Shown: positions 1-14,951 of the stretch, piece by piece
How positions within the stretch are numbered: the stretch's first letter is position 1
Layout of the letters: the number at the start of each line of letters is the position of its first letter
IMG/VR virus record: IMGVR_UViG_3300017991_000099
Length of the DNA stretch: 20,000 bases
From: an uncultured virus (IMG/VR IMGVR_UViG_3300017991_000099)
Taxonomy: Duplodnaviria > Heunggongvirae > Uroviricota > Caudoviricetes
Direction: 5' to 3' (one strand)
Program-made: the position numbers and the translations under genes
The notes under the pieces: model-generated
Told to the model about the DNA's origin: nothing
The model's input: only the letters and a program-made list of their open reading frames with translations
The model's database searches: none

Positions 1-55
1 CTGACTTTTGTTTATATATTCAGCAGCAAAGAGGACAAAACAAAAGGGAGAAAAA

Positions 56-271: not shown

Positions 272-313
272 GAATTGTATATCCAAGTAGGCCAAGACAA
301 GGGAGAAAACGAA

Positions 314-670
314 ATGAAAACGCTCGAATGTGAATGTGGTCGTAAGGTCAAGAACGTGGATGACAATGCCGTTGCTGTAATGTGTTATTTGTGCTTGAAT
401 GGAACGCAACCTATTGACCCTAACGCACCTATTCCCGAAGAAAAGCCCCAGGAACCCAAGCAAGAAAAGCCAAAGCCGGAACCTAAGAAAAGCATGGAAA
501 TCGTCGTGTTCAATAAGGACGATTCTACTGCTACAGGACAGGCTAACGGTATCCAGTTCAAGGCTACACGCAAAATGGGTCTGGACAAGAAGTTGCATTG
601 GATTCTGGAAGGTGATTGGAGTAGGGGACAACGTATCGCAATTTCTCGAAAAATCAACGCGAAAAGTTAG
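314..670 (+). CDS. Hypothetical protein: N-terminal zinc ribbon (CECG...CYLC), Pro/Glu/Lys linker, C-terminal domain
   Basis: ACAAGGGAG RBS, ATG at 314, motif at 275. Confidence 0.85.
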   Translation: MKTLECECGRKVKNVDDNAVAVMCYLCLNGTQPIDPNAPIPEEKPQEPKQEKPKPEPKKSMEIVVFNKDDSTATGQANGIQFKATRKMGLDKKLHWILEGDWSRGQRIAISRKINAKS

Positions 671-718
671 AAAAAATAGGCTCCAGATTTGTATATGTAA
701 TTAGAAGAAAGGAGAAAA

Positions 719-821
719 ATGAAAAAGCATACGTGAGCGCCCCAACCTGCTTCTAAGGCGCTATGACATAAATGGGGGAAGCAGGGGCCAGGAGTTGATC
801 GCCCTGGCCATGAGAAAATAA
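719..821 (+). pseudogene. Frameshifted mini-gene or 5-codon minigene (MKKHT*)
   Basis: Motif at 689 plus AAAGGAG RBS and ATG 719 give TGA at 734-736; the +1 frame stays open to TAA 819-821. Confidence 0.45.
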
Positions 822-886
822 AAAGAAATTGATCAAAAATAATCATCTTGAGAATTGTATATATAGGGAGAAGGGAGAAGAAAACA

Positions 887-1087
887 ATGGCCACTATTCG
901 TTGCTACAATATCAAATGGGACACAGACGGCGAAGAAATTGATTTGCCGGGTGAAGTGGTTATTGAAATTGAGGAAGAAGAGGGAATCGACCTTGAGACT
1001 CTGGTCAATGAACAAGGGGCAGATGTTCTTTCCGATGAATATGGCTGGTGTATTTTTGGATATAATTGGGAAGAAGTTACGAAATAA
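887..1087 (+). CDS. Small, very acidic hypothetical protein
   Basis: AAGGGAG RBS, ATG 887; NIKWDTDGEE...LSDEYGWC. Confidence 0.85.
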   Translation: MATIRCYNIKWDTDGEEIDLPGEVVIEIEEEEGIDLETLVNEQGADVLSDEYGWCIFGYNWEEVTK

Positions 1088-1129
1088 TTGCTTTAGGATT
1101 TGTATATATAAATACAAGGGAGAAAGACA

Positions 1130-1525
1130 ATGAAAAAGGGTGTATTGATCGACGCAGTAAACAAGACAGTGACAGACGTAGAAGTAGAGGATGGAATTGA
1201 CGCTATCTATGAAAAGATCCAGGCAAACAATTTCGATGTTGTGGATATTGCCGACAATGCTACTCTGTACGTCGATGGAGAAGCATTGTGCAAGCAAGCA
1301 TACATTGACGAAGACGGTACAAAACACGGTCTACATGCGTTTTCTTTTGATGGTATTTCTCAAGTTATGATGGGTCATGGTCTTATTCTTGGTTTTGATG
1401 CTAAGACTGGTGAAAGTGTCGATTCTCCCTTCAATGCAGAAAATATCGAAGGCTATATCACCTTTTGCGAGTATGACAGGCCAGAAGATCGACCGCAACC
1501 ATTTATGCAGTTTTTCTCGTTTTAG
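1130..1525 (+). CDS. DUF3846-like phage protein
   Basis: Motif, RBS; pattern LYVDGEAL...GHGLILGFD..GESVD recalled as DUF3846-like. Confidence 0.7.
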   Translation: MKKGVLIDAVNKTVTDVEVEDGIDAIYEKIQANNFDVVDIADNATLYVDGEALCKQAYIDEDGTKHGLHAFSFDGISQVMMGHGLILGFDAKTGESVDSPFNAENIEGYITFCEYDRPEDRPQPFMQFFSF

Positions 1526-1606
1526 TTGCGAAAAAACAGGCTTTTGAATTGTATATACTGTTGTCGAGGGAATAAACCTAAGACAAAAACAACAAGGGAG
1601 GAAAGA

Positions 1607-1807
1607 ATGGACGCAATCCTGACAAAAGAAGAAGCAATAGACCGTATCGAGAATGGCGAGTTTCAGTGTCATAATTGCGGGGAATGGCACCAGACCGATT
1701 TTGACAACTGGAATTACGACCATCAGGGCAACATGTATTGCAGCAAGTGTACGGATGCCTTGATCTGGCGGTTGAGAATTGTTGCATCAAATTACGAAAC
1801 GCTCTAA
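1607..1807 (+). CDS. Small zinc-finger protein (CHNC...CSKC)
   Basis: ACAAGGGAGG RBS, ATG 1607. Confidence 0.85.
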   Translation: MDAILTKEEAIDRIENGEFQCHNCGEWHQTDFDNWNYDHQGNMYCSKCTDALIWRLRIVASNYETL

Positions 1808-1854
1808 AATAACTGCCTTGTCTTTTGTATATATAGGGCAGAAGGGAGAAAAAG

Positions 1855-2094
1855 ATGCTGTACCTTGTCAAGTTTGGTTGCTTTCCAAGCGGTCCTAGAA
1901 GTTGCCTGATTTCTGCCGATTCCAAAGAAGAGGCAAAAGGGTATGTCTCTGAGTATTATAGTTACGGTGAAGATAAGTGGCAAGAGACAGACGAAGACCC
2001 GGTGTATGATTATAAAAATGAAATCTACACCTACACCATTGAACAGGTTGAATTGACAAACGGGATTCTTCATCGGTCATATAATTGTTGCTAA
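1855..2094 (+). CDS. Hypothetical acidic protein
   Basis: Motif 1825, AAGGGAG RBS. Confidence 0.8.
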   Translation: MLYLVKFGCFPSGPRSCLISADSKEEAKGYVSEYYSYGEDKWQETDEDPVYDYKNEIYTYTIEQVELTNGILHRSYNCC

Positions 2095-2190
2095 AAACAA
2101 GAAAAAGATACGAAAAAACAGGCTTTTGAATTGTATATACTGTTGTCGAGGGAATAAGCCCAAGACAAAACAACAAGGGAGAAAAGAACA

Positions 2191-2367
2191 ATGCAAGATG
2201 TAATGACCGAAATCAACACCGACGTTATTGGAAAGTTCAAAATGTCCGAGTTCGTGGAGTATCTTGAGCTTGACGAAAAGCTGGCTCGTAAGTTCTGGAG
2301 AGCATTGCGGAGAAAAGAAGTTATCCAGAAGAAGAATAACCAGTTCTATGTTGACGGAAATCTCTAA
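2191..2367 (+). CDS. 58-aa hypothetical protein, possibly winged-helix-like (not in ORF track)
   Basis: Hand translation MQDVMTEINTDVIGKFKMSEFVEYLELDEKLARKFWRALRRKEVIQKKNNQFYVDGNL*; motif 2131 and RBS. Confidence 0.8.
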   Translation: MQDVMTEINTDVIGKFKMSEFVEYLELDEKLARKFWRALRRKEVIQKKNNQFYVDGNL

Positions 2368-2520
2368 ATAGATCCTTTCCTTCCATGTTCGTGTTTCAAA
2401 TGCTCTTGGGGGTGGAGAAACCACATACTCTCCACCCCCTTCCCTCCCTAAAAAAATAAAAGTTTTACCCCGAAATAATTGCCCTGTGTTTTGTATATAT
2501 AGGCACAAGGGAGAAAACAA

Positions 2521-2943
2521 ATGAATATCGTTTTCCTAGACATTGACGGGGTACTAAACCAAAACGGAAGTATGGATTTCCCGCCTGCATTGGATACAGC
2601 AAAGGTGGGCAATCTGAATCTGATTCTTGAAAATACAAACGCCAATATCGTAATTTCAAGCACTTGGCGTTTCATGTTCTCGCAAGAAGAAATCGAAAAT
2701 GCTCTGACTACTGCTGGCTTCATGTTTCTTGACCGGATTATTGATAAGACTCCGGTTCTAAATGAAGGAACAAGGGGAAGTGAAATCGCTATGTGGATGC
2801 AAGATAAGGACATACAGAGCTTTGCGATTCTTGACGATGACGATGATTTCTTGCCAGATCAAATGCCTTTCCTGGTCAAGACAGACTTCGATACTGGTCT
2901 GACAAGAGAACATGTAGAAAAAGCAATCGAAATCTTGAGTTAG
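2521..2943 (+). CDS. HAD-superfamily protein (Swiss Army Knife RNA-repair-like HAD)
   Basis: FLDIDGVLN motif I, IVISSTWR, RGSEI..W, FAILDDDDD. Confidence 0.9.
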   Translation: MNIVFLDIDGVLNQNGSMDFPPALDTAKVGNLNLILENTNANIVISSTWRFMFSQEEIENALTTAGFMFLDRIIDKTPVLNEGTRGSEIAMWMQDKDIQSFAILDDDDDFLPDQMPFLVKTDFDTGLTREHVEKAIEILS

Positions 2944-3014
2944 AAAATAAGCATTTTACTCCGAAATAATACGCTTCAGAATTGTATATAGAAGTACAAG
3001 GGAGGAATAAGAAA

Positions 3015-3281
3015 ATGCCATATGTCACGAAAAAACACTTCACAGTTGACGGCAAAAGACCTACTACAGCAGATTGGAATGAGTTGTGCAAAGACGACAA
3101 TTTCAATTCTGCTGTTTCTTTCTTTGAGGAAGCACAGTACAGTAAAAAACTTGCCAAACAATACGCAACAGAAGAGGGAGAAAATATTTCCTCTATCTGT
3201 GCCTTTATTGATAGGCTTGGTATAGGCACACACCAAGAAGAGGCAAAAAATTACTCCGGTTATTCTGGACCTATTTCATAA
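3015..3281 (+). CDS. Hypothetical protein
   Basis: Motif 2982, ACAAGGGAGG RBS, ATG 3015. Confidence 0.8.
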   Translation: MPYVTKKHFTVDGKRPTTADWNELCKDDNFNSAVSFFEEAQYSKKLAKQYATEEGENISSICAFIDRLGIGTHQEEAKNYSGYSGPIS

Positions 3282-3342
3282 ATAATCCAGAAATAATGAC
3301 CTTGAGAATTGTATATATGTTCAGTAAAGGGGAGATAAGAGT

Positions 3343-3597
3343 ATGCCGCCAAAACTGATTGCTGAAGGAGAAGAGAGTATGAACAATGTCGATCAACTCT
3401 GGAACAAGTATTGGTATGATCGCGGCTTCAAGGATGGATATGAGGCGTTTGGAACCGAAGCACATCCTCTCTTTGCTGACCATGCTGTTTATATGTGTGG
3501 TTGGGAAGATGGTCAAGAATATGGAGATGCAGTAGTAGAAGGTGAGGAACAGTGGTTTGTTGCAAAGGGTTATCGCTCTGCCCTTTCTGCTTCTTAG
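3343..3597 (+). CDS. Hypothetical protein with an Rmf/CrpP-like pattern
   Basis: YDRGFKDG-x8-HP-x7-YMCGWEDG resembles the RMF pattern RGYxAG-x8-CP-x9-WLGGW; GGGGAG RBS; alternative start 3379. Confidence 0.6.
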   Translation: MPPKLIAEGEESMNNVDQLWNKYWYDRGFKDGYEAFGTEAHPLFADHAVYMCGWEDGQEYGDAVVEGEEQWFVAKGYRSALSAS

Positions 3598-3721
3598 ACG
3601 TTGTTCGTTCTCTGGGAGGGGAGTCTGGTCAACTCCCCTCCCTCCTCTAAAAATAAATAGTTTTACCCCGAAATAATTACTCTGCCTTTTGTATATATAA
3701 ACACAAGGGAGGAATAAAAAA

Positions 3722-4045
3722 ATGCTTACCGTCGAATACTACTGGCATTGCGTATCTGCTGAAAAGGCTGTCTACAAGATCGAGGGCAGCAAAGATACAT
3801 ACACTGTTTCTTACGATCACAATTATATCAATACCAAGGGTCAGGGTTGGCATTGTCCTTGTCAGGGTTTCACTTTTCGTAAGACCTGCAAGCACGTAAA
3901 AGAAGCACAGGCAAAGCATTGTGGTTGGCTCCAGTTCGTTTCTGGTGGGGATGCTGTTGACGTTCCTGAGAATGACGAATATACTAACGGAAAAGCCTGC
4001 CCTGAGTGTGGCGGTCCAGTTGCTTCAAGAGGATGGGGAGTGTAA
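3722..4045 (+). CDS. SWIM zinc-finger protein with a C-terminal CPECG knuckle
   Basis: YTVSY...WHCPCQGFTFRKTCKHV fits SWIM CxC...CxH. Confidence 0.88.
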   Translation: MLTVEYYWHCVSAEKAVYKIEGSKDTYTVSYDHNYINTKGQGWHCPCQGFTFRKTCKHVKEAQAKHCGWLQFVSGGDAVDVPENDEYTNGKACPECGGPVASRGWGV

Positions 4046-4048
4046 TAA

Positions 4049-4657
4049 ATGCTCTTTGTTGGTGACGTACACGGTAAGTTTGACGCATTTGAGAGCCTAC
4101 TATATAAACACCTGGATAATAAACCAGTCTTCCAATTAGGAGATATGGGAATAGGCTTTACAAATTGGAATGATGGTCTATATTCCCGTATCGTCCCTAA
4201 CCATAGATTCATAAGAGGCAACCACGACGACCCGGAAAAGTGTGAAAAAGAATACAATTATTTAGGTGACTTTGGTTTCCTGAAAGAACATAATCTCTTT
4301 TATATAAGTGGGGCGCATTCAATAGATAAACATTTGAGAACAGAAGGTAGGGATTGGTGGCCTGGAGAAGTATTCAATTATACACAACAAGAGGAATGTG
4401 TAAAATTATATACAGAAGCAAAACCTAAAATTGTAATGTCGCATGAATGTCCTAACGATTGTGTTCAATATGTTGCAAAATACGGTTCGAGTAAAAATAA
4501 TAACGATAGCATGAAAATGATGTTGAATCATATGCTTTCGATACATGAACCAGAACATTGGATATTTGGGCATTATCATATTACATTGCATTTTGAATTG
4601 CCGGATTGCTCAACAAACTTTCATGCTGTAGACGAATTAGATACTTTTTCTCTCTAA
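4049..4657 (+). CDS. Calcineurin-like metallophosphoesterase
   Basis: GDVHG, LGDMG, RGNHD, SHECP, FGHYH motifs. Confidence 0.93.
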   Translation: MLFVGDVHGKFDAFESLLYKHLDNKPVFQLGDMGIGFTNWNDGLYSRIVPNHRFIRGNHDDPEKCEKEYNYLGDFGFLKEHNLFYISGAHSIDKHLRTEGRDWWPGEVFNYTQQEECVKLYTEAKPKIVMSHECPNDCVQYVAKYGSSKNNNDSMKMMLNHMLSIHEPEHWIFGHYHITLHFELPDCSTNFHAVDELDTFSL

Positions 4658-4720
4658 ATAATTGCCTTGTGTTTTGTATATATGTTTGTTGGAGAAAGAC
4701 ACTCAAACAAGGGAGAAAAA

Positions 4721-5032
4721 ATGCTCAATTCGCTTCTGACCGGCAATGCACCTATCGAGACTAACGAGATTCACGCAGCAGTAACAGAGCGATTCAATGC
4801 TATTCGTCATACCCTCAATGAAAAGGAAGGCGATTATATTTATTTGGGCAATCGCTGTAATCCTGTCAATTTGGGTTGGCGTTTTTGTCAGAATGTTGGT
4901 GGCTACTTGGGTTGTGAAGATTTTGACCCGGCAGATATTCTCGCTGGCAAGTATGACGAAGGAATTGAAGCTACTTGGCATGACGCAGCTTCCGCACAAC
5001 ATTGGTATACTTACGAAAAAGAATGGGAATAA
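4721..5032 (+). CDS. Hypothetical protein
   Basis: Motif 4674, ACAAGGGAG RBS, ATG 4721. Confidence 0.8.
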   Translation: MLNSLLTGNAPIETNEIHAAVTERFNAIRHTLNEKEGDYIYLGNRCNPVNLGWRFCQNVGGYLGCEDFDPADILAGKYDEGIEATWHDAASAQHWYTYEKEWE

Positions 5033-5097
5033 AAAACAAAACCCCTAAATAATTGCCTTGTGTTTTGTATATATAAGCACAAGGGAGAAATAAGAAA

Positions 5098-5286
5098 ATG
5101 AATATGCTCGAAAAAATGGCAGAAAGAATCGTGCAAGAAGGTGATTATCAAAAACTTATCAACGCTCTGATGAAGGCTGCCAAGGAATGCAATAAGGATT
5201 ACGAAGCACAAATTGAATTGATCAGAACACTTGAAGAACACAAAGAAGGAAATGAAAATCTTGCTTTTCTAAGTAGTTTTTCCTAA
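5098..5286 (+). CDS. Small helical hypothetical protein
   Basis: Motif 5065 and RBS. Confidence 0.8.
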   Translation: MNMLEKMAERIVQEGDYQKLINALMKAAKECNKDYEAQIELIRTLEEHKEGNENLAFLSSFS

Positions 5287-5338
5287 AATAATTGACCTGG
5301 AAATTGTATATATAAAAAGACATAAAGGAGAAAATAAA

Positions 5339-5665
5339 ATGAAGGTCGAAATTACTGGCTTCAACAAAGAGCGTAAGATTCCCGCTATCAAGGCTGTCCG
5401 TACTTTGACAGGTATGGGCCTCAAGGAATCCAAAAACATTATTGACGATACTCAGGATGGAAATAAACATAGTATCGAAACCAATCCTGAATTTGATGTG
5501 CGTCAGATTGTCAATATTTTGGATGAAGGAGAAGTTCAATACAACATTATTTCCAATCTTGTTACTCACCATTTGAAGGAAACACTTCAGGTTGCTCTTG
5601 ATAAACACAACTTTGAACTGGTTTGTGATCTTGCTGCCGTTGCTAAAAAGCATGGATTGGAGTAA
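5339..5665 (+). CDS. Ribosomal protein bL12 (L7/L12) C-terminal-domain-like protein
   Basis: KIPAIKAVRTLTGMGLKESKNIID matches the bL12 signature KIxVIKAVRxxTGLGLKEAKxLVE. Confidence 0.85.
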   Translation: MKVEITGFNKERKIPAIKAVRTLTGMGLKESKNIIDDTQDGNKHSIETNPEFDVRQIVNILDEGEVQYNIISNLVTHHLKETLQVALDKHNFELVCDLAAVAKKHGLE

Positions 5666-5669
5666 AAAA

Positions 5670-5855
5670 ATGAATGTTTATCTTGCAGAACCGGGATTTG
5701 TTAATCCAGTATTCAAGAGTGGAATTCAAACTGTTCGCTGCTGGGATGCTTTGAAACACTATCTCGAAAAGGAAGTTGCACTGAAAGAGAATGAAGAAAT
5801 TGAAGCTATCGAAGTTGGGGGATACGGAATAAAAATCAAGATTGTTCAGAAATAA
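5670..5855 (+). CDS. Hypothetical protein
   Basis: GGAG RBS inside the end of the previous gene, ATG 5670; stop lies in the AAATAA of the next motif. Confidence 0.75.
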   Translation: MNVYLAEPGFVNPVFKSGIQTVRCWDALKHYLEKEVALKENEEIEAIEVGGYGIKIKIVQK

Positions 5856-5931
5856 TTGAGTTGACTTTTGTATATATAATTGTTGGAAGGGAATGGACCT
5901 AACCAACAAAAACATAAGGGAGAACAAAACA

Positions 5932-6138
5932 ATGTCAGTCAATGCAAGGGGTGGAGAGTTTCGTGGTTCCGAGCGTTCCCAGGCACACAATGCAATTTTC
6001 GAGTGTCCTATCTGTGGCACTATGAACACCAAGCGTAAGTCTTTTGCTGTTCGTGGTGGTCGTTTTTGTAAGAAGCACGGGGACGAGACTTCTGTTATTA
6101 TGGTCATGGATCACCGCAAGAAGAGAAAGAGAGCGTAA
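5932..6138 (+). CDS. Small basic zinc-finger protein (CPICG...CKKH)
   Basis: AAGGGAG RBS, ATG 5932. Confidence 0.8.
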   Translation: MSVNARGGEFRGSERSQAHNAIFECPICGTMNTKRKSFAVRGGRFCKKHGDETSVIMVMDHRKKRKRA

Positions 6139-6140
6139 AA

Positions 6141-6338
6141 ATGGCTAAATACGAAGCGGAAAGAGAATTGATCAAGAGAAACCTTAGCACTATGGGAGTG
6201 ACGAAAGGTGCAATGAAGGGGTGCAGAATCAACACGTTACGTATGATGTTGCTTGAAAAGGTGCTTCCTATGAGCCAAGAAAATCGGCAGATCATTATGA
6301 GGGCGGTTTGGCCCAACGGAATGCCAAATAATGACTGA
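6141..6338 (+). CDS. Hypothetical protein
   Basis: Starts 2 nt after the previous stop. Confidence 0.7.
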   Translation: MAKYEAERELIKRNLSTMGVTKGAMKGCRINTLRMMLLEKVLPMSQENRQIIMRAVWPNGMPNND

Positions 6339-6406
6339 AAAATCTCTTTTGTTCTGAATTTTTTACTTTAACTTTTGTATATATAAAAAGAAAGGAAACA
6401 AAACAA

Positions 6407-6583
6407 ATGGCTAAGTCAAAAAAGCAACTTTACGAAGAAGCAGTTGAGCGGAACCTTGCAACTGCCCAAAACGCCAAAAAGAGCAAGTATAAGGGTATGG
6501 CGTTCAATGAGGCAAAAATTAAGATTGGGATTCGCAACGACGACGAATCTTATGACGATCAGGTAAAACAAGCAATCAAATAG
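6407..6583 (+). CDS. 58-aa hypothetical protein (not in ORF track)
   Basis: Hand translation MAKSKKQLYEEAVERNLATAQNAKKSKYKGMAFNEAKIKIGIRNDDESYDDQVKQAIK*; motif 6375, AAAGGA RBS. Confidence 0.75.
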   Translation: MAKSKKQLYEEAVERNLATAQNAKKSKYKGMAFNEAKIKIGIRNDDESYDDQVKQAIK

Positions 6584-6607
6584 CAAAATCACAAAAGATA
6601 AATAAAA

Positions 6608-6946
6608 ATGAATGATTGGCCTAAGTATGATCGACCGTTTTTCTTCCATGTCAATACGGATCTTTTGGCTTTTAAGGAAATTACCGTATGTGCCAAACCT
6701 AAAGAACCTGGAAGTGAATATTTTGCAGTTGGAGTAGCCTGTTGCAGTAAAGGTGACTCGTACAATAAGAAGTTGGGAAATAGGATTGCAAGGGGCCGAG
6801 CTACTGTCAGGTCAAATATTTCAGTTAAAGCAAAGAGTCCTACTGAATTGAAAAATGTTGTTGATTCTCTTGCCCATGATATAGACGAAAAACAGCATTG
6901 GCTCTATAAAGATAAGAATTGTGCTTGCGGATCTTGCTCGCACTAA
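6608..6946 (+). CDS. Conserved-looking phage hypothetical protein
   Basis: GVACCSKGDSYNKKLGNRIARGRA, a GxAxCSxxDxxxKKxGxxIAxGR pattern I recall from phage proteins. Confidence 0.75.
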   Translation: MNDWPKYDRPFFFHVNTDLLAFKEITVCAKPKEPGSEYFAVGVACCSKGDSYNKKLGNRIARGRATVRSNISVKAKSPTELKNVVDSLAHDIDEKQHWLYKDKNCACGSCSH

Positions 6947-7060
6947 AAGAAATCCCTTGTGTCCTGGGTAGAGAGAGTATGTTTATCCCCCACCTAAAAA
7001 CTGCCCAACAAAAATATGCTCTCTCTACCCTCTCCCTTGTTATATAAAGGATAAATAAAA

Positions 7061-7243
7061 ATGTCAGAAGAAGATAATAGACTCACTCCCAAATACTGCA
7101 AAAAATGTGGTACTCAACAATATTCCACTATTGTTTGCCCTATCTGTGGAAATAAATCATATACAACATTCAAACAAAAGAAAATCCTTGGCGGTAGAGA
7201 AATATTAGACGAAAACCCACACGATAAATATGGAAATGATTAG
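7061..7243 (+). CDS. Small zinc-ribbon protein (CKKCG...CPICG)
   Basis: Two CxxC knuckles; AAAGGA RBS. Confidence 0.75.
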   Translation: MSEEDNRLTPKYCKKCGTQQYSTIVCPICGNKSYTTFKQKKILGGREILDENPHDKYGND

Positions 7244-7287
7244 AAACTTTTGCTCCTGGAATTGTATATACATAAAGAAATAACAAA

Positions 7288-7405
7288 ATGAAGAAATGCC
7301 CTGTTTGTTCTAGTACAAAATACTAGAACAATATGCAAACCCAAAGACGAACTAAGAGAATGTAAATCCTGTGGACATATCTATCTCAAACAAGAAAGAA
7401 AATAA
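7288..7405 (+). pseudogene. Frameshifted zinc-ribbon mini-gene (CPVC / CKSC in different frames)
   Basis: MKKCPVCSSTKY* in frame 0; the +1 frame continues NTRTICKPKDELRECKSCGHIYLKQERK* to TAA 7403-7405. Confidence 0.7.
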
Positions 7406-7407
7406 AA

Positions 7408-7743
7408 ATGTTCAATATAGACTCGCAACCTAGATACTTACACGATTGCGATAATTGCCTTTTCCTTGGCTGTTATAAAGAGTTTGATTGCTACTGGTGT
7501 CAAGGCTCTACCTCAATCGCTGGAGGCTCTGTAATCGCTCGATATGGCTCAGAAGGACGTGAATATAGCTCAAGTCCTGTTGCTATTGTCCTGTATGCTG
7601 ATATTACAGATAATGTCCTCTTCAAAATTGCCCAATATCTACTAAGAGCAGGATATATCAAACTACAAGTAAACCAGGAAAGAATTGAAGAAGACGAACC
7701 ACTCTATGAAAGCCTATGGAATGCAAGAAAAACTGTATATTGA
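7408..7743 (+). CDS. Conserved-looking phage protein (HDCxxCxFLG...ARYG...YSS)
   Basis: Metal-binding-like motif; ATG 2 nt after the upstream stop. Confidence 0.8.
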   Translation: MFNIDSQPRYLHDCDNCLFLGCYKEFDCYWCQGSTSIAGGSVIARYGSEGREYSSSPVAIVLYADITDNVLFKIAQYLLRAGYIKLQVNQERIEEDEPLYESLWNARKTVY

Positions 7744-7951
7744 TAAATTCGGCAATCGCTACTGGTATAATGATGATGGATACCTGCATCGTAATAATGG
7801 ACCAGCAGTAGAATGGAATAGTGGCTCTAAAACATATGCTAAAGATGGAAGAATAATAAGACACTCATATCCTTTGAAATATAACGATAATATCTCGCAA
7901 TCATTTATTCTCTGTGCAATGGGCTTTCCAAGAATAAAAGGAATAAAATAA
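7721..7951 (+). CDS. LHRxxGPAVE (MORN-variant-like) repeat protein
   Basis: GNRYWYNDDGYLHRNNGPAVEW; paralogous to 8593-8814. Confidence 0.75.
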   Translation: MQEKLYIDKFGNRYWYNDDGYLHRNNGPAVEWNSGSKTYAKDGRIIRHSYPLKYNDNISQSFILCAMGFPRIKGIK

Positions 7952-8019
7952 AAAACAGGGAACAAACTCCTTTTGCCAAGCGTATGTATTCGAACGCTAT
8001 ATAAAAAGGAGAATATACA

Positions 8020-8370
8020 ATGAAAGATCCCAAAGATTACCTGAAGAAACCCAAACCAGTTGTCATTGATAGAGGAGCATATGGCCTAAAAGAAGGTCAA
8101 CAAGTCCCAATAGAATTCTGCCCTGCATTTGTATGTATCGACTGTGGACATAAACAAAGAGAAACATGGTCGAAAATGAAACGGGCCGCAATGCCTAGAT
8201 GCCAATTGTGCGGTGGAGCCTTAGACCTGCCAACAAAAGTAAAAGAAGAAGCAAAGAAAGATAGAGAAATTGACAGTACAGATTATAGATGTAAAAAATG
8301 TGGATGCAAATTAAGAAGAGGAAATTTTGATGATTATTGCTCCCCATGTCAAAATTCCTTCAAGTTATAA
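8020..8370 (+). CDS. Double zinc-ribbon protein
   Basis: CIDCG..CQLCG and CKKCG..CSPC; AAGGAG RBS. Confidence 0.85.
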   Translation: MKDPKDYLKKPKPVVIDRGAYGLKEGQQVPIEFCPAFVCIDCGHKQRETWSKMKRAAMPRCQLCGGALDLPTKVKEEAKKDREIDSTDYRCKKCGCKLRRGNFDDYCSPCQNSFKL

Positions 8371-8471
8371 TTCCTGAATAGTCGATATAATATATAGGGA
8401 ACAAAAGGAAGCCAACACTGGTTCCTTAAAAAGAGGAAGCCATGACATAACCCCCAATTAGAAAGGGGAAT

Positions 8472-8600
8472 ATGAACATGGTACGCTTTATTGCGGCAAG
8501 AGTTTTAGTAGCAGCAGTAAAAACATTGGCAAAATTGGCAATCAAGTTGGCAGGCCATGGATACTTCGAAATACAAATATTCAGAATAAAAAATGGCTAA
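8472..8600 (+). CDS. 42-aa Ala-rich amphipathic peptide (not in ORF track)
   Basis: GAAAGGGG RBS; MNMVRFIAARVLVAAVKTLAKLAIKLAGHGYFEIQIFRIKNG*, overlapping the next start. Confidence 0.5.
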   Translation: MNMVRFIAARVLVAAVKTLAKLAIKLAGHGYFEIQIFRIKNG

Positions 8601-8814
8601 CTTACACATAGATGAAAATGGTAGTAGATATTGGTTTGAAGAAGATGATTTGCATAGAGATAATGGTCCCGCTGTTGAATTTATGGACGGTAGTAAAATA
8701 TGGTATTACAAAGGCGAATACCATAGAGATAACGGACCAGCTGTAGAATGGAATGATGGATTTAAAGAATGGTATAAACACGGTAGGCTAATCAAAAGCG
8801 AAGGAGTAGAATAA
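8593..8814 (+). CDS. LHRxxGPAVE (MORN-variant-like) repeat protein, two repeats
   Basis: LHRDNGPAVEF and YHRDNGPAVEW. Confidence 0.85.
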   Translation: MANLHIDENGSRYWFEEDDLHRDNGPAVEFMDGSKIWYYKGEYHRDNGPAVEWNDGFKEWYKHGRLIKSEGVE

Positions 8815-8849
8815 CCTAATAATTAGTCCAAATCAAATGTGGAATATTA

Positions 8850-9017
8850 TTAGACCTTATCTTTACCCCTTTCCTCCTTCCAATCCAATGCCAATAACTT
8901 TTCTTTATTCTTATTATACTCTTCTTCGTTAGATAAGAAAAATTGACGATAATTCCAGTAACGATGACCATTTCTTACAGTGCTATACCACATTGTCAAT
9001 ACACGATTATCATCCAT
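8850..9017 (-). CDS. Hypothetical protein
   Basis: Minus-strand motif at 9044, AGGAGG/AGGA RBS, ATG 9017. Confidence 0.7.
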   Translation of the reverse strand: MDDNRVLTMWYSTVRNGHRYWNYRQFFLSNEEEYNKNKEKLLALDWKEERGKDKV

Positions 9018-9097
9018 TTTTCCTATCCTCCTGAATATATACAATTCCTACACTGAAAATTTCCTAAAACTAATAGAGAAATTCAAAAACCCAAACA

Positions 9098-9292
9098 TTA
9101 CCATACAATTCCATCAGAAGAACCCCTATTCCCCTCAATGAAATCCTTCTTTGCCTGCTTCCGGTTCTGTCCGTATACATGAATCTTATTCGGACAATAA
9201 GAAACATCGTGCCAAAAATGATGCGGAAAATCAGCACCCTCCACAACTTCATACTTCGCCTTCTGCTTGCAATGATAACAATGCAAACCCAT
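9098..9292 (-). CDS. Small Cys/His protein (CYHC...CPNKIH)
   Basis: Minus-strand motifs at 9316 and 9353, AAGGGG RBS; alternative start 9298. Confidence 0.7.
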   Translation of the reverse strand: MGLHCYHCKQKAKYEVVEGADFPHHFWHDVSYCPNKIHVYGQNRKQAKKDFIEGNRGSSDGIVW

Positions 9293-9371
9293 ATTCATAT
9301 CCCCTTATATATACAAACAACAAACCCCTTTTCCAACACCTATATATATACAATACCAACCCCAATAATTT

Positions 9372-9421
9372 CTAAACAAAACAAAAGGGAAGGGGGATAA
9401 TTATTTCTATCCCCCTTCCCT
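9372..9421 (-). terminator. Intrinsic terminator after the ArdC-like gene
   Basis: 14-bp stem AGGGAAGGGGGATA/TATCCCCCTTCCCT (9386-9421), then TTTGTTTTGTTT on the minus strand. Confidence 0.8.
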
Positions 9422-9434
9422 GAATAACCAACCC

Positions 9435-10256
9435 TTACGCTTCAACCCCAATCTCTTCAGCGGTCTTAAGAATGTGCTCAACAATCTTGCACACCCGGTT
9501 GACCACCTTGTAGCAAGCATCCGCCACAGACTTGCCTTCCCGTTCCGCCCAAGTCTTGACATACTCAAAACAACCGCCCAAATCCGCTTCAGTCTCGTAA
9601 CCGATGCACTTCAGAAGAACCGCACCAGCAAACTCGGCAGTCACTTCACCCAAAGCACGACTGTCTTTGCCAAGGTTGCCCAGCAGATCGTCGCTCTTGT
9701 GTGCCAACTCATGCGCCCAAGTTGACAGATTCTTAGTGCCAAGGCCAATCGCGTTCGGTCCAGGCATGTAAACACCCAAAGCACCATGCTCAGAACCATT
9801 GAAAGCCTCGACCGAAACCCCCCAATGCTTCGCAACTTCAATCAGGGGCAAACTCGACATAAACTCTTGCACATCTGAAGCATGTTCAATCGGCTTGCCT
9901 TCAGTCTGTTCCAAGCCGTAAACCCGCACAGCCTTGAAACCGATCAAAAACGACTTCTTTTCGCCCGTATCCTTGTCCTTGTAAGAACGCATGACAGGGG
10001 CAAGAATGTGAACCGGATTGCTCCATTCCTCGCTCTTCACCCAACGACCCAGCTTTTTCCACTGTTTGGCTCCACGGGCATCAGAATAACCATGCAACAG
10101 CACAATCAGCCGGTTCATAAAGCTGTAACCCGAAATGTGCTTATCCGCAGCCCCCTGAACAAACACCTGAGAAAGAGCCGCAGGAATATCGCCATTCTCA
10201 AAGGCCCGGATCACACTGTTTGCTGCATTCTGTGCCTGCCCAAAATACTTAGCCAT
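9435..10256 (-). CDS. ardC: ArdC-like protein: N-terminal ssDNA-binding domain plus zincin-like (HExxH) metallopeptidase domain
   Basis: YSFMNRL, RGAKQWKKLGRWVK, ILAP, GFKAVRVY..EQTEG (ArdC-N/DUF1738 pattern); WAHELAH and EVTAE; ACAAGGGAG RBS, motif at 10327. Confidence 0.8.
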   Translation of the reverse strand: MAKYFGQAQNAANSVIRAFENGDIPAALSQVFVQGAADKHISGYSFMNRLIVLLHGYSDARGAKQWKKLGRWVKSEEWSNPVHILAPVMRSYKDKDTGEKKSFLIGFKAVRVYGLEQTEGKPIEHASDVQEFMSSLPLIEVAKHWGVSVEAFNGSEHGALGVYMPGPNAIGLGTKNLSTWAHELAHKSDDLLGNLGKDSRALGEVTAEFAGAVLLKCIGYETEADLGGCFEYVKTWAEREGKSVADACYKVVNRVCKIVEHILKTAEEIGVEA

Positions 10257-10319
10257 TTTTGTATCTCCCTTGTCCCTTGTTCTCTGTGGCTTGAACCCCA
10301 TTGTTCTCGCCACAACCAG

Positions 10320-10401
10320 ATAAACAATTCTCAAGACGATTTTTTCGACACTATCTTTTTTTTATTTTGATACGAATTTTTCGAATCCAGAATTGTATAT
10401 C
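10320..10401. repeat. Back-to-back motif pair, copy 1 (others about 10475-10556, 11252-11333, 12365-12446)
   Basis: ATAAACAAWTCTCAAGACRATWTTTTCGA...GWTACGAA near-identical in three copies; minus TTG to plus TTG distance is 66 bp in all four. Confidence 0.85.
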
Positions 10402-10419
10402 TGAACCCATGTGCTAAAA

Positions 10420-10470
10420 ATAGACCTTGGCGTAACTCTGGACCAAGGGCGCGTATGTCCCTTCCCGCAA
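10420..10470 (-). ncRNA. Putative small non-coding RNA, copy 1 of 3
   Basis: Conserved ORF-less element starting 12 nt after the minus motif at 10482; AAGGG/CCCTT stem with 9-nt loop. Confidence 0.55.
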
Positions 10471-10587
10471 TAAAATAAACAAATCTCAAGACAATATTTT
10501 CGACACTATCTTTTATTTATTTAGATACGAAAAAATTGATCTGACTTTTGTATATACATTCAGGACAAGACAAGGGAGAAAAGAACA

Positions 10588-10752
10588 ATGGCTAAGAACA
10601 TGAAAAACAACAAAAACAAGAAGCAGAAAAGCAACACAATCACTATCCCCGTCGAACACAAGGCCCCAAGGGTTTTCTTCAAGAAACAGACCCACAAGGA
10701 CAAGAAAAAGCATGCAAAAAAGTATGCTTGTCGCGGAAAAAATTGGGATTAG
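10588..10752 (+). CDS. 54-aa highly basic protein (HKDKKK...KYACRGK), not in ORF track
   Basis: Motif 10548, ACAAGGGAG RBS; hand translation MAKNMKNNKNKKQKSNTITIPVEHKAPRVFFKKQTHKDKKKHAKKYACRGKNWD*. Confidence 0.8.
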   Translation: MAKNMKNNKNKKQKSNTITIPVEHKAPRVFFKKQTHKDKKKHAKKYACRGKNWD

Positions 10753-10836
10753 TTACGAAAAAATTGATCTACGTTTTGTATATATAATTGTTGGAAGGGA
10801 ATGAGCCCAACCAACAAAACAAGGGAGACACAAAAC

Positions 10837-11118
10837 ATGGCAATCACCCGCGAAAAGGTCTGCATCGACGGCAAGGTTTACGAGCGCGAAATTGACACAA
10901 ACGAAGCACAGGTCCACCGCTTCATGGTCAGCGATCAAATCATGGGTCGCCTTGGCCTCCGGTTAGACTCCTACGCAGCAAGAGTCGAACAGGGACGCAA
11001 AGGCCCAATGGCCTCCGCAATGGCCGCTCGCAACCACAAGAATGGCAAGAGCCGTAAGGCCGAATCCGCTGCACGGGCAAGAAGGGAACAGGCCAAAACC
11101 AACCGGGAAGGCAAGTAA
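10837..11118 (+). CDS. Hypothetical protein with a basic C-terminus
   Basis: Motif 10776, RBS, ATG 10837. Confidence 0.8.
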   Translation: MAITREKVCIDGKVYEREIDTNEAQVHRFMVSDQIMGRLGLRLDSYAARVEQGRKGPMASAMAARNHKNGKSRKAESAARARREQAKTNREGK

Positions 11119-11141
11119 ACCCGGCACACACAATAACTTAG

Positions 11142-11178
11142 AGGGACCGGGAACAACAAACCCGGTTCCTTTTCTTTT
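11142..11178 (+). terminator. Intrinsic terminator
   Basis: AGGGACCGGG/CCCGGTTCCT stem followed by TTTCTTTT. Confidence 0.8.
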
Positions 11179-11200
11179 GATTTATATACAAACCATATAG

Positions 11201-11247
11201 ATAGAATTCGGCGTACCTCTGGACTAGGGTTTGTTACCCTCCCGCAA
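11201..11247 (-). ncRNA. Putative small non-coding RNA, copy 2 of 3
   Basis: Starts 12 nt after the minus motif at 11259; same scaffold, different loop. Confidence 0.55.
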
Positions 11248-11384
11248 TAGAATAAACAAATCTCAAGACAATATTTTCGATATAATCTTTTATTTATTTA
11301 GTTACGAAAAAATCGAGCTACGTTTTGTATATATAAGTGTTGAGGAAATAAGTCTTCAACACAAAAAACAAGGGAGAAACAAGA

Positions 11385-11543
11385 ATGGCCAACGATCTGA
11401 CAAACATCCCCGCCGCCGCCTGTTGCAAGTGTGGAGGATGGACAAGTTATGGCGGTTGCAGCCAACACAGGGACGCAACAAAGCCGGTCCTAGGACGAAC
11501 CGGATGCACCTGCCTCAAAAAGAACAAGAAGAAAGAAAAATAG
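11385..11543 (+). CDS. 52-aa Cys-rich basic protein (not in ORF track)
   Basis: MANDLTNIPAAACCKCGGWTSYGGCSQHRDATKPVLGRTGCTCLKKNKKKEK*; motif 11325 and RBS. Confidence 0.75.
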   Translation: MANDLTNIPAAACCKCGGWTSYGGCSQHRDATKPVLGRTGCTCLKKNKKKEK

Positions 11544-11625
11544 ATCCGAAAAAATTGCTATGGGAATTGTCTATACAGTTGTGAGGCAAAGAGGCCCACA
11601 AAACAAACAAGGGAGAAACAAAACA

Positions 11626-11982
11626 ATGATTACCCTCTACACCGCAACTTACCAGATTGTCACCCAGGACGATGCAAGCCACTACACTTCCGGCTATGGC
11701 AAGGCAACACACCACGATATGAAAATCGCTGCAATCCGGGCATATCAGCTTGCAAATGAGGATTTTGACAAGCAGGTCCGCAATGACGATACTGGCCTTG
11801 CTGGTTCCGGTTGCTGCATCCTCCATGACGGCAATGTGGACCGCTACAACGATGGGGAAAAGGATCTCGCAACCTATTGGAGCTACGACTTTTACGGCCA
11901 CAACAATAACCACTTTGTTGAAATGCACCGTAGTCCTTCCCTGGTCGAAAACATCAAAAACCGGGAAAAAGTTACAAAATAA
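11626..11982 (+). CDS. Hypothetical protein
   Basis: Motif 11567, RBS, ATG 11626. Confidence 0.8.
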   Translation: MITLYTATYQIVTQDDASHYTSGYGKATHHDMKIAAIRAYQLANEDFDKQVRNDDTGLAGSGCCILHDGNVDRYNDGEKDLATYWSYDFYGHNNNHFVEMHRSPSLVENIKNREKVTK

Positions 11983-12052
11983 TCACGCTACAAATTGTAT
12001 ATACTGTTGTCAAAGGGAATGAGCCCAAAGACAAAACAAGGGAGAAACAAGA

Positions 12053-12220
12053 ATGGATATGACGACCGAAATCAAGACCCTCCTGAATGACACCGAAAAC
12101 GTATGTGATGGTGAGCTTGATCTGTACGGCGAAGAATGGGAATACTACAAGTCGCACAAGGATTCCCAGCCAGAGGATTATTCCTGGTACGAAGAATCTC
12201 TCCAGAATTGCCCCTTCTAG
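12053..12220 (+). CDS. 55-aa acidic/aromatic protein (not in ORF track)
   Basis: MDMTTEIKTLLNDTENVCDGELDLYGEEWEYYKSHKDSQPEDYSWYEESLQNCPF*; motif 11995 and RBS. Confidence 0.8.
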   Translation: MDMTTEIKTLLNDTENVCDGELDLYGEEWEYYKSHKDSQPEDYSWYEESLQNCPF

Positions 12221-12251
12221 GGCATATAAAGCCCTACAATCAATCTTAACG

Positions 12252-12290
12252 GCCCTGCCCCAGCAAGACAAGGGGCAGGGCATTCTTTTC
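12252..12290 (+). terminator. Intrinsic terminator
   Basis: GCCCTGCCCC/GGGGCAGGGC stem followed by ATTCTTTTC. Confidence 0.75.
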
Positions 12291-12313
12291 AATATAAGCC
12301 AAATATGGACGAA

Positions 12314-12360
12314 ATAGACCTTGCCGTACCTCTAGACCAGGGAATCAAACCCTCCTGCAA
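12314..12360 (-). ncRNA. Putative small non-coding RNA, copy 3 of 3
   Basis: Starts 12 nt after the minus motif at 12372; same scaffold, different loop. Confidence 0.55.
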
Positions 12361-12470
12361 GTATATAGACAAATCACGTATCAAATAATTCAATACCAAA
12401 TAAAATAAACTTTGCTACGAATTTTCCCTGTTCAGAATTGTCTATATATCAAAAGAAGGGAGAAAAAACA

Positions 12471-12815
12471 ATGCCAAAAGAAGATATGTATTCCTACTTC
12501 TTTATAAAAAAAGATGATGGCTCTGAAGAAATGTTCACCGTTACAGAACACGCACAAAAAAGAGTTCTGGAAAGACATCGAGAGCTATACCCAAAAGATA
12601 CTCCCGCAAATAAACCAAATTTTATGATATATAAAATGTTGAATAAATATCAACATTCAAGATATTGGTATATTATTACAAAAGATAATAAAAAGATGAG
12701 ATGCTGTATATGTGGGAAATTTCGCCTGATTATATCACAAGATAATTTCGTAATTACCGTTATGATTCGTAAAAAGTTCAAACCGAAAAAAAGAAAACAT
12801 AAGCAAATAGCATAA
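12471..12815 (+). CDS. DUF4258/RelE-like (BECR-fold) putative ribonuclease
   Basis: TEHAQKRVLER near the N-terminus and LII...VITV near the C-terminus. Confidence 0.55.
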   Translation: MPKEDMYSYFFIKKDDGSEEMFTVTEHAQKRVLERHRELYPKDTPANKPNFMIYKMLNKYQHSRYWYIITKDNKKMRCCICGKFRLIISQDNFVITVMIRKKFKPKKRKHKQIA

Positions 12816-12894
12816 ATTATCTTGAAATTTCCCCTATCCAATTTGTATATATATTCGTGAGGCAATGAGGCCAAACAAAAAGGGAGAAAACAAA

Positions 12895-13287
12895 ATGCTT
12901 CAGAACATTCTCAACCTGCTGAATGTGGTCCTGAGCCTGCTTCCTGGTAACAAGCCCAAGGTCCGCTCCGCAATTTACAACATCATGGAGTCTCTCAAGC
13001 GGGAACAGATTCGCCTCTCTGATGACGAAAAAATGGAAATCTACCGGGAATACAATCTGAATGGAAAGGTCCGCAAGATCCCGCATATCAAAGCAGTAAA
13101 GGATCGTACTGGCCTTCCTTTGACCGATTGTAAGGAAATGGTAGAAGAATACATAGCGGCAGAACTTGAAGAAGAATCCCCGTATGGCACCTGTAAGCGT
13201 TGTGGAGCCGCTAACGACGAAATCGGACAGTGTGGATTTTGTCAGTATATGTCTTCTTCTCCTTGTGAATATCAACCCCGCACATAA
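12895..13287 (+). CDS. Protein with a divergent bL12-CTD-like segment and a C-terminal zinc ribbon
   Basis: KIPHIKAVKDRTGLPLTDCKEMVEEY, then CKRCG...CGFC. Confidence 0.7.
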   Translation: MLQNILNLLNVVLSLLPGNKPKVRSAIYNIMESLKREQIRLSDDEKMEIYREYNLNGKVRKIPHIKAVKDRTGLPLTDCKEMVEEYIAAELEEESPYGTCKRCGAANDEIGQCGFCQYMSSSPCEYQPRT

Positions 13288-13300
13288 AATCGCCTCCGTT

Positions 13301-13340
13301 AGCCCCTGGTCCATAAAAAGGCCAGGGGTTATTTTTTATT
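13301..13340 (+). terminator. Intrinsic terminator
   Basis: AGCCCCTGGTC/GGCCAGGGGTT stem followed by ATTTTTTATT. Confidence 0.8.
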
Positions 13341-13394
13341 TAGATACGAAAAAATAGACTCCCGAATTGTCTATATACAAAAGGGAGAATGACA

Positions 13395-13577
13395 ATGATA
13401 CACTTGACAGATGAAGAATTGGTTAACATCTACGAAATTGAAGAGAAATTCGGCTATATTCGCGTTCCTTGTGCCGATAGTGGTTTTCGTAAAGCTGTAG
13501 AACAAATCGGATTTATTGCCGACAAAGAACATAGTGAAAGTGACAAAATGATGATTGTATATAAAAGGGAGAAATAA
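13395..13577 (+). CDS. Hypothetical protein
   Basis: Motif 13367, AAGGGAG RBS; alternative start 13389. Confidence 0.7.
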   Translation: MIHLTDEELVNIYEIEEKFGYIRVPCADSGFRKAVEQIGFIADKEHSESDKMMIVYKREK

Positions 13578-13579
13578 AT

Positions 13580-13882
13580 ATGGAAATCTACGCAACCCTC
13601 GATATTATCAACAGTAAAGCCGATATTTATGGAAATCGGTATTGGGCTTTTCGTTATACAGACCATGAAACCGGAAATAATGTTGAAGCTAGAATCTCAG
13701 GGGGCGAAAGTAATATCAATGCTATTCGATGCCATATGGGAAAAGTAGATGGTTGGGATTCCGGTATCAATACAAAAAGAACAGAAATGAAAATCAGGGA
13801 ATTCAACCGCCTGACAAAAGACTGGCCTCATGCTGGTTGTTCTCCCGAAGACCTTGCCAATTATATAAAAAATAATCTTTGA
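13580..13882 (+). CDS. Hypothetical phage protein (DIYGNRYW motif)
   Basis: TTGTATATA box (13555) and RBS embedded in the end of the previous gene. Confidence 0.8.
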   Translation: MEIYATLDIINSKADIYGNRYWAFRYTDHETGNNVEARISGGESNINAIRCHMGKVDGWDSGINTKRTEMKIREFNRLTKDWPHAGCSPEDLANYIKNNL

Positions 13883-13948
13883 TACGAATTTTCCTCCCTA
13901 CAAATTGTATATAATAGTGTCAGACAACTCATACAAGGGAGAATAAAC

Positions 13949-14128
13949 ATGGTCGTACATTTCCGCAACCTCCGATTTCGTAACAATGCTGGTATGGATT
14001 TTCCTCAGTGCTATTCCAATGCTGACCTTTTGGATCTCGATAAAGGTCGCCTGCCTACTACTGGTGTTGATACAGAAGTGACCTGCAAGCGTTGTCTCCG
14101 TTATCTCAAAAAGAAAAAAGGAAATTGA
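13949..14128 (+). CDS. 59-aa zinc-binding protein (H...C...VTCKRC), not in ORF track
   Basis: MVVHFRNLRFRNNAGMDFPQCYSNADLLDLDKGRLPTTGVDTEVTCKRCLRYLKKKKGN*; motif 13905 and RBS. Confidence 0.8.
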   Translation: MVVHFRNLRFRNNAGMDFPQCYSNADLLDLDKGRLPTTGVDTEVTCKRCLRYLKKKKGN

Positions 14129-14197
14129 TACAAAATAATCCGGCTACAAATTGTATATAGTATTGTCAGACAACTCATACACAAGGGAGAAAAGACA

Positions 14198-14919: not shown

Positions 14920-14951
14920 TTAGATGTCATAGATGTATTAGGAGAGTTAAT

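Follow-up and report, generated by a model that had tools for sequence, protein, structure and literature searches.

Leader hairpins with a conserved hexaloop at the predicted 5′ ends of early-type transcription units in an uncultured phage

Introduction

Why would a phage place small hairpins with one recurring loop in the leaders of a subset of its genes? The question is raised by a 20,000-nt stretch of DNA (hereafter the window, whose positions are used throughout) from an uncultured virus of the class Caudoviricetes, IMG/VR record IMGVR_UViG_3300017991_000099. The initial annotation of this stretch listed nine leader hairpins with an AAWRRR hexaloop and proposed that they form a protein-binding RNA motif marking a subset of early mRNAs. 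Our analysis confirms the leader hairpins, finds them in 15 of 45 promoter-like units, so that they do mark a subset of the early-type units, and places them at the predicted first base of the transcript. The hairpin is probably a transcribed, 5′-terminal RNA structure. With less assurance, we lean toward the explanation that this 5′-terminal stem-loop, carried by 15 of about 45 early-type units, blocks 5′-end-dependent decay and in addition presents a sequence-specific apex. The observation of the hairpins is solid; their function is what we infer.

Hairpins in the leaders of promoter-like units

A unit was defined as a promoter-like core TTGTATATA with at most one mismatch, followed by a ribosome site, an ATG and an open reading frame (ORF) of at least 30 codons. 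The definition was applied to an extended sample of 27,870 nt, consisting of the window and the 7,870 contig bases that adjoin it on the left (L001), and 45 rows were found. Three of these were removed (the cores at +1056 and −9353, whose gene is shared with a nearer core, and the doubtful core at −13870), and three units with two-mismatch cores were added, namely the unit of an ArdC-like gene on the minus strand and those at L001 12340 and L001 12555, giving a final n of 45. The 15 hairpin units comprise the nine already annotated, a variant at 4688–4708 and five in the adjoining contig DNA. Their elements follow a set order, in which the core (TTGTATATA, or TTGTTTATC in the minus-strand unit) precedes the hairpin and the hairpin precedes AAGGGAG and the ATG.

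All nine annotated hairpins read exactly as they had been written (seven on the plus strand, an inner stem at 12861–12872, and the minus-strand copy at 10314–10285). The first unit, whose core at 1549–1557 (+) is one of about 30 in the window, carries the hairpin TTGTC-GA-GGG-AATAAA-CCT-AA-GACAA at 1561–1586 (+; 28.7 bits; −8.3 kcal/mol, z −2.45), which spans 1563–1584 when counted from the predicted +1, the G at 1563. Further plus-strand copies lie at 2143–2168 (loop AATAAG; z −3.56), 5880–5909 (loop AATGGA; 33.2 bits, z −3.51) and 10788–10817 (loop AATGAG; 37.3 bits, z −4.14). The stem is built differently at 11337–11362 (+), where it is continuous over 10 bp below an AATAAG loop (26.2 bits, z −6.74), at 11579–11601 (+), where it has a 1-nt bulge and an AAAGAG loop (18.5 bits, z −2.75), and at 12007–12034 (+), where a 3 × 3 AAA/AAA internal loop lies below AATGAG (35.8 bits, z −1.99). 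On the minus strand, the hairpin at 10284–10315 (loop AATGGG; 29.4 bits, z −4.45) stands before the ArdC-like gene, with its TTGTTTATC core at 10327–10319. Around the inner stem at 12861, the only part annotated before, there is also an outer stem of 2 bp, set off by the GA/AA internal loop seen in other copies; together they form the short hairpin GT-GA-GGC-AATGAG-GCC-AA-AC at 12857–12876 (+; 22.5 bits, z −1.78), which begins at the sixth base past the core. The variant at 4688–4708 (+; GUUGGAG-AAAGACA-CUCAAAC, core at 4674–4682) is weak (13.1 bits, E 0.71; z −0.95; −3.2 kcal/mol from the predicted +1).

The five copies to the left of the window have the loops AAUAAG or AAUGAG (two copies), AAUGG (one) and A(G)UUGG (two), and one of the five was detected solely by the covariance model (25 bits). 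Over the 15 hairpins, the six-base AAWRRR loop is thus present in 11, AAUGG in 1 and other loops (AAAGACA, AGUUGG, AUUGG) in 3. Some cassettes are closely similar: 1529–1607 and 2111–2188 are 94.9% identical over 79 nt, 10749–10841 and 11298–11389 are 83% identical, and both pairs flank unrelated genes. The Rfam covariance models gave no relevant match in the window at E values up to 1.

Evidence for a fold on the sense strand

Under a loose definition (3 bp and an AAWRRR loop) the window is not enriched, with 30 matches against 24.4 ± 5.0; under a two-tier definition there are 16 matches against 6.7 ± 2.5, with a maximum of 15 in 300 shuffles (27,870 nt, both strands). Ten of these 16 begin 2–4 nt past a core, a placement for which roughly 0.05–0.2 matches are estimated by chance.

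The initial annotation held that the stems vary in sequence yet keep pairing around a kept hexaloop, and this is borne out. In a loop-centered alignment of 11 copies, 83.6% of the cells are paired, compared with 54.5 ± 3.5% after shuffling (0 of 500 shuffles as high), and pairing drops to 32–48% when the partner is slid by 1–3 columns. The loop-closing pair is GC in five copies, AU in three and CG in three, and RNAalifold returns nine pairs, of which eight have changed on both sides; part of the covariation in the outer stem reflects a register shift between stems of unequal length. Each hairpin leader adopts the same shape, with minimum free energies (MFE) of −5.4 to −21.1 kcal/mol and z scores of −0.95 to −7.97.

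Among the 116 cells, 89 are Watson-Crick pairs, 8 are G-U and 1 is A-C, the last coming from the bulged copy, and the internal-loop mismatches on the sense strand are all purine-purine (G-A or A-A). Because of these mismatches and the excess of G-U over A-C, the data argue for a fold that functions on the sense strand only, most likely as RNA and less likely as the non-template DNA strand, in agreement with the RNA-level hairpin first proposed. Similarly, the covariance model scores the sense strand at 18–37 bits and the antisense strand at no more than 11 bits. From end to end, the inverted repeat measures between 20 and 32 bases depending on the copy, which makes it unlikely to serve a dimer as a double-stranded operator.

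Conservation is stronger in the loop than in the stems. In the 11 copies the first loop position is always A, the second always A and the third U in 10, whereas stem sequences such as GTGCCGG and TTGTTGG have almost nothing in common, which is the opposite of the pattern expected from a purely structural constraint. Judged from this alignment, the loop is under sequence selection. No consistent complement to the loops, as a loop partner or pseudoknot would provide, was found within 140 nt downstream.

Predicted start of transcription

Over the 45 units, the promoter-like module consists of a CGAAAW box, a 17-nt spacer, TATATA and an A-rich tract, which is the geometry of the sigma-70 family. 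In the unit at 10776–10784 (+), for instance, the CGAAAW box lies 20 nt upstream of the TTGTATATA core and a purine occupies the sixth base past it. That sixth base is a purine in 44 of the 45 units, being G in 15/15 hairpin units and A in 23 others, and the fifth base is a pyrimidine in 15/15 hairpin units and in 19/30 of the rest. Transcription is accordingly predicted to start at the G of (T/G)TG, in the pyrimidine-purine step formed by the fifth and sixth bases past the TATATA box. The initial annotation had set +1 at the third base past the core, probably three bases too far upstream; the purine that it noted 11 nt after the TTG is present in all eight full hairpins of the window, and the base is T in four of the five extra copies.

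Counted from the predicted start, the first base is paired in 15/15 hairpin leaders (MFE −3.2 to −15.0 kcal/mol). The sixth base falls within the outer stem as first drawn; a start there shortens the RNA stem by two pairs, and the stem persists. The copy at 12857 is without the TTGT arm, yet its first base is the predicted start. Over the hairpin leaders the loop begins 8–14 nt from the predicted +1, a variable distance which implies that it would be read through the hairpin and not by its linear distance from the start.

Leaders with and without a hairpin

The units fall into two leader classes. The distance from core to ribosome site is 28–55 nt in the 15 hairpin leaders, and 3–25 nt in 29 of the 30 others; the remaining one, the unit at window position 8, measures 29 nt and is unfolded. 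From the predicted start, the MFE is 0 in 30/30 non-hairpin leaders, and the predicted folds leave the ribosome site free in every hairpin leader. None of the 15 hairpins is followed by a T-run, A/C-rich linkers are found instead, and the terminator scan calls none of the 15, so that the hairpins are without the signature of an intrinsic terminator.

The products encoded behind the hairpins are unrelated small proteins, including zinc ribbons, the ArdC-like protein, one L7/L12-like protein and a number of ORFans. G+C content is higher in the genes for these products than in the genes behind plain leaders (0.480 ± 0.046 vs 0.409 ± 0.047; Mann-Whitney p 7e-5), also at third codon positions (0.525 vs 0.403), which suggests that a set of cassettes of distinct composition, perhaps imported, carries the hairpin along. 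As read from the sequence, at least four hairpin units (starts at 2131, 10776, 11995 and 12843) are short, contain a single gene and close with a GC-rich hairpin of their own; the terminator scan called one of these terminal hairpins, at 13300–13331.

Inverted repeats around the other cores are limited to scattered cases of 5–8 bp. At 5056–5084, 7-bp arms (CCTTGTG..CACAAGG) form an inverted repeat on either side of the promoter core of a unit that has no hairpin, the 3′ arm sharing bases with the ACAAGG in front of the ribosome site; a few other cores have similar, shorter repeats, which are not a general feature.

Occurrence of the apex in other phages

A promoter-free word search of IMG/VR with TTGT..GGGAATRRRCCY..ACAA returned 86 loci. 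The largest repeated match string (group B, 17–18 rows) was set aside as a likely coding coincidence, since the locus that was checked (L062) lies inside an ORF on the opposite strand. True hairpins with a GGG-AAURRR-CCY apex are found in several unrelated contigs, in leaders of the gene that comes first near a contig end. Two copies in G001 stand behind TTGACT-17-TATACT and one in G002 behind TTGCTA-17-TATAGT. The locus L249 has one behind TTGACA-17-TATAAT, and in all three the stem runs from the seventh base after a consensus −10 box. The apex is also present in G003 and in an 11-contig family, one member of which has the compensatory change from TAGGG/CCCTA to TGGGG/CCCCA, and a provirus (G005) has one such hairpin.

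A −10-anchored scan listed at least 117 loci, and a permuted-loop control 108; distinct contexts with at least eight pairs were compared. The distance from −10 to stem was taken by a strict helix walk, and an RNAfold measure was dropped because it over-extended at the segment edge. Among the matches listed, the stem lies at the seventh base past the hexamer in 7/22 real contexts and 0/15 control contexts, and within one base of that position in 10 real and 2 control contexts. This modest signal suggests that, in lineages with almost nothing else in common with this phage, the apex is associated with the base at which host-type promoters begin transcription. A shared phage protein behind the apex was considered and rejected, because a tblastn comparison of 81 ORFs of the region with five other apex-bearing phages gave one weak match (E 7e-4, in G002) and none for the other 80. 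Rfam gave no relevant match, at E values up to 1, in 23 apex-bearing loci of other phages. A search for a T7-like RNA polymerase in the five apex phages gave no match and is uninformative, as the control genomes were also silent.

Two of these loci have features of their own. At bases 121–153 of L243, the hairpin GCCGCAGGGG-AATGAG-CCCCTGCGGT lies at the seventh base after a TATAAT box and resembles the stem of helix 45 of E. coli 16S rRNA at 12/18 unconstrained positions, a single case; mimicry of helix 45 as a general reading was rejected, since the real and control distributions overlap. In L128 (G001:C1:747-3770, record positions ~1640–1700 and 2190–2250), two promoter-hairpin modules form GC-rich islands in a genome of 33% G+C, and around each −35 box there is a 12-bp palindrome, GATCCGCCGGGG..CCCCGGCGGATC, which may be an operator.

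A proposed role and its alternatives

We propose the following role for the leader hairpin. Transcription would start at the conserved G, the sixth base past the TATATA box, so that the first RNA base would already be paired. Such a paired 5′ end would leave an RppH-type pyrophosphohydrolase, the 5′ sensor of RNase E or RNase J no grip, and hairpin-tagged messages would live longer. The AAURRR apex on its G/C-rich top stem would add a second, sequence-specific feature, either a structured loop or a contact for a putative factor. Both the stabilizing effect and any binding partner are things we infer. The principle that paired 5′ ends protect bacterial mRNAs from 5′-end-dependent decay is described as established, and BsRppH is reported to require at least two unpaired 5′ nucleotides (PMC3997798). 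As for the apex, we think a host factor a more likely reader than a phage factor, because the same apex stands at the first early promoter of unrelated phages, which is used before any phage protein is made.

Emory in 1992 and Bouvet and Belasco in 1992 are reported to have found that 5′-terminal base pairing stabilizes E. coli mRNA, and 5′ stem-loop stabilizers of the ompA/papA type are reported to act regardless of sequence. The phage leaders resemble the hairpins of the ompA and papA 5′ untranslated regions in having almost no unpaired 5′ bases, given the predicted +1, and in lying upstream of a free ribosome-binding site. They differ in that the loop sequence is kept in 11–12 copies and recurs in other phages, and in that stabilization is here a predicted effect. 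A literature search on conserved hairpins at phage early promoters and transcription start sites returned no paper.

Several findings weigh against this proposal. All copies are paralogues of one genome, and some are recent duplicates (the 94.9% pair), so the counts of covarying cells overstate the number of independent events. Complementarity reaches two bases upstream of the predicted start (TT...AA), and two copies with G in place of that T have C as its partner, which hints at an earlier start or at a hairpin at the DNA level; transcription may begin a few bases earlier, and the hairpin would be 5′-terminal in either case. A consensus sigma-70 scan is not enriched (36 sites vs 37.6 ± 6.0 expected) and the hexamers are non-consensus; moreover, the start-site rule applied here is a borrowed one. 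A plain stabilizer needs no conserved loop, and the presence of other loops in the same slot of 3/15 hairpins means that the apex is not obligatory there. Finally, the cross-phage signal is modest (7 vs 0 among the matches listed), and one of its contexts, the L170 family, looks like coding sequence.

By analogy, the closest known kind of element is the PeSL cassette of T4-type phages, in which an early promoter, a stem-loop and a Shine-Dalgarno sequence lie upstream of an ORFan and which is repeated about 50 times per genome (PMC2839356); such cassettes are known from RB49/phi1, PST/T4 and nt-1/KVP40 (PMC2839356; PMC4122927). As far as these sources describe them, PeSL stems pair a G-tract with a C-tract, and in one subclass the stem-loop is downstream of the −10 (PMC2839356). 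The two systems share dozens of repeated intergenic cassettes before small ORFans (45 units in 27,870 nt here) and near-identical cassettes beside unrelated genes, as in the 94.9% and 83% pairs. They also appear alike in the succession of AT-rich stretch, early promoter, G/C-tract stem-loop, Shine-Dalgarno sequence and start codon. The hairpins could therefore be PeSL-type stem-loops that work at the level of DNA and transcription, attenuating read-through from upstream and offering homology for the shuffling of ORFan cassettes, with the loop kept by descent. This would agree with the higher G+C of the genes behind hairpins, as for imported modules, and with the three hairpins that carry unrelated loops in the same slot. 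We nevertheless consider it unlikely, given that no T-run follows any of the 15 hairpins, that the stem-loop is found in one third of the cassettes, always in the leader at the predicted +1, whereas PeSLs are described with five positions, and that the G-U/A-C asymmetry and purine-purine internal loops indicate a single sense-strand fold. Loop conservation also exceeds stem conservation, and the apex recurs at the predicted +1 in unrelated phages. The promoter is another difference, being non-consensus here and a sigma-70 consensus with an AT-rich upstream region in PeSLs as described. Compared with that description, the new features would be the fixed placement at the predicted +1, the sense-strand-only fold, the conserved asymmetric hexaloop and the lack of a terminator signature.

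An operator for a phage RNA-binding protein, acting through boxB-like antitermination or as a translational switch of an early regulon in the manner of T4 RegA/gp43, would explain why some of the units retain a purine-rich loop on stems of varying sequence. Lambda boxB is likewise a small hairpin whose loop is rich in purines and which lies toward the 5′ end of early transcripts. Small basic, Lys/Arg-rich proteins are encoded near the present element (10588–10752 and 14503–14622), and its 5′ arm is often ribosome-site-like (GAGG, AGGG), with the complement in the 3′ arm. We regard such an operator as doubtful all the same. The true ribosome site is unpaired in every predicted fold. Searches of the 42 window proteins with Pfam, PHROGs and NCBIfam found no N-like, RNA-binding or antiterminator family, and the two basic proteins have no PDB relative. 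Furthermore, 80 of the 81 ORFs have no tblastn match in the five other apex phages, where the hairpin stands at the first promoter near a contig end. The boxB option suggested in the initial annotation fares worst of the readings: the loop has six bases (five, AAUGG, in one copy) instead of the five-base GNRA-like loop, the hairpin starts at the predicted +1, and the element is present 15 times, at least four of these in short one-gene units that a GC-rich, terminator-like hairpin of their own closes off. A boxA word, allowing up to two mismatches, has 15 window matches against 19.6 expected, none of them in a leader.

Returning to the protective 5′-terminal hairpin, a bolder and rather improbable extension is that the AAURRR hairpin at +1 is a 5′ tag common to different phages, converged on or exchanged among them, and read by a conserved host component on their first messages. 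The ribosome, an RNA chaperone, a decay enzyme or a defense nuclease might be that reader. If true, the tag would be a new class of cis-acting element of early mRNAs, beyond the generic stabilizing hairpin. Phage early genes have to be expressed in a hostile cell on host machinery alone, and a portable hairpin that protects or marks early messages would be a trick of general use in phage takeover. Such a hairpin could also serve as a compact part with which to stabilize synthetic mRNAs made in bacteria, and its sequence as a signature by which to find immediate-early genes in the genomes of uncultured phages. The higher G+C behind the hairpins would tie this control of messages to the modular shuffling proposed for PeSLs.

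Genomic setting and further observations

Positions 1–14,650 of the window are a run of small genes, almost each with its own promoter-like module, strong AAGGGAG ribosome site and ATG. Positions 1–13,834 are the reverse complement of bases 13,834–1 of the 109,874-bp metagenome contig Ga0180433_10000173, at 100% identity, and the final 6.2 kb extend beyond the contig end and differ in composition and gene style. We read the region as the early, ORFan-rich part of an uncultured phage.

Few of the 42 window proteins could be named with Pfam, PHROGs and NCBIfam, and 24 of them have no Pfam family at E 0.01. The named ones include an HAD_SAK_2 phosphatase, a calcineurin-type phosphoesterase, the ArdC-like anti-restriction protein (9435–10256, minus strand) and two proteins with the C-terminal domain of ribosomal protein L7/L12 (5339–5665 and 12895–13287; Pfam E 4e-9 and 9.5e-5, NCBIfam L12 below cut-off), one of which is encoded behind a leader hairpin. 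Beyond about 14,650 lie a zinc-ribbon-rich ORF of 909 amino acids with HNH-endonuclease-like PHROG matches and a DUF4116 repeat protein of 630 amino acids.

Relatives of this phage were sought in several ways. Megablast found no match to 14.7 kb of the region in phage records, tblastn gave none for the ArdC-like protein, and all relatives of the phosphoesterase are below 40% identity. Scans of IMG/VR with the proteins and with the promoter and hairpin pattern found no relative, and a promoter-only scan found 28 single, chance-level loci and no relative. The metagenome pattern scan recovered the same phage only (L001, L007–L009 and L011, 99.96–100% identical), together with six single chance matches. 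Three DNA sequencing runs contain the same strain, with one substitution and every hairpin unchanged, and therefore provide no natural variation; no RNA sequencing runs are listed as containing this DNA. No T4 core genes were seen within the 28 kb examined, which cover the window and 21.7 kb of the contig.

Some minor features of the region may be recorded. An intergenic element of 110–137 nt is present in four copies (window 10420–10556, 11201–11333 and 12312–12421; L001 12171–12281). It has a minus-strand core (TTGTTTATT or TTGTCTATA), followed by a conserved segment of about 55 nt, ..TTGCGGGARGG-hairpin-GGTCCAGAGKTACGCC.., and in some copies a stem, CCTTGG..CCAAGG, and a T-rich tail come next. 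Ten pairs are predicted by RNAalifold, three of them changed on both sides; Rfam has no match, and the element may be a family of small non-coding RNAs.

Behind the core at 7262, a small zinc-ribbon-like ORF at 7288–7404 appears by eye to be cut by an in-frame TAG after 12 codons and has its second Cys pair in a different frame, which would fit a broken gene or a case of unusual read-through.

From about 14,650 the window is AT-rich, and its positions 13835–20000 lie outside the metagenome contig. The word aaaaattttgcagatttt..gg.aatttgg is common to the upstream regions near 14875 and 17725. In sequencing run X1, the contig that covers 14406 onward has a depth of 26.8, about half the 58.2 of its neighbor, and positions 13835–20000 may be a variable or mobile insert.

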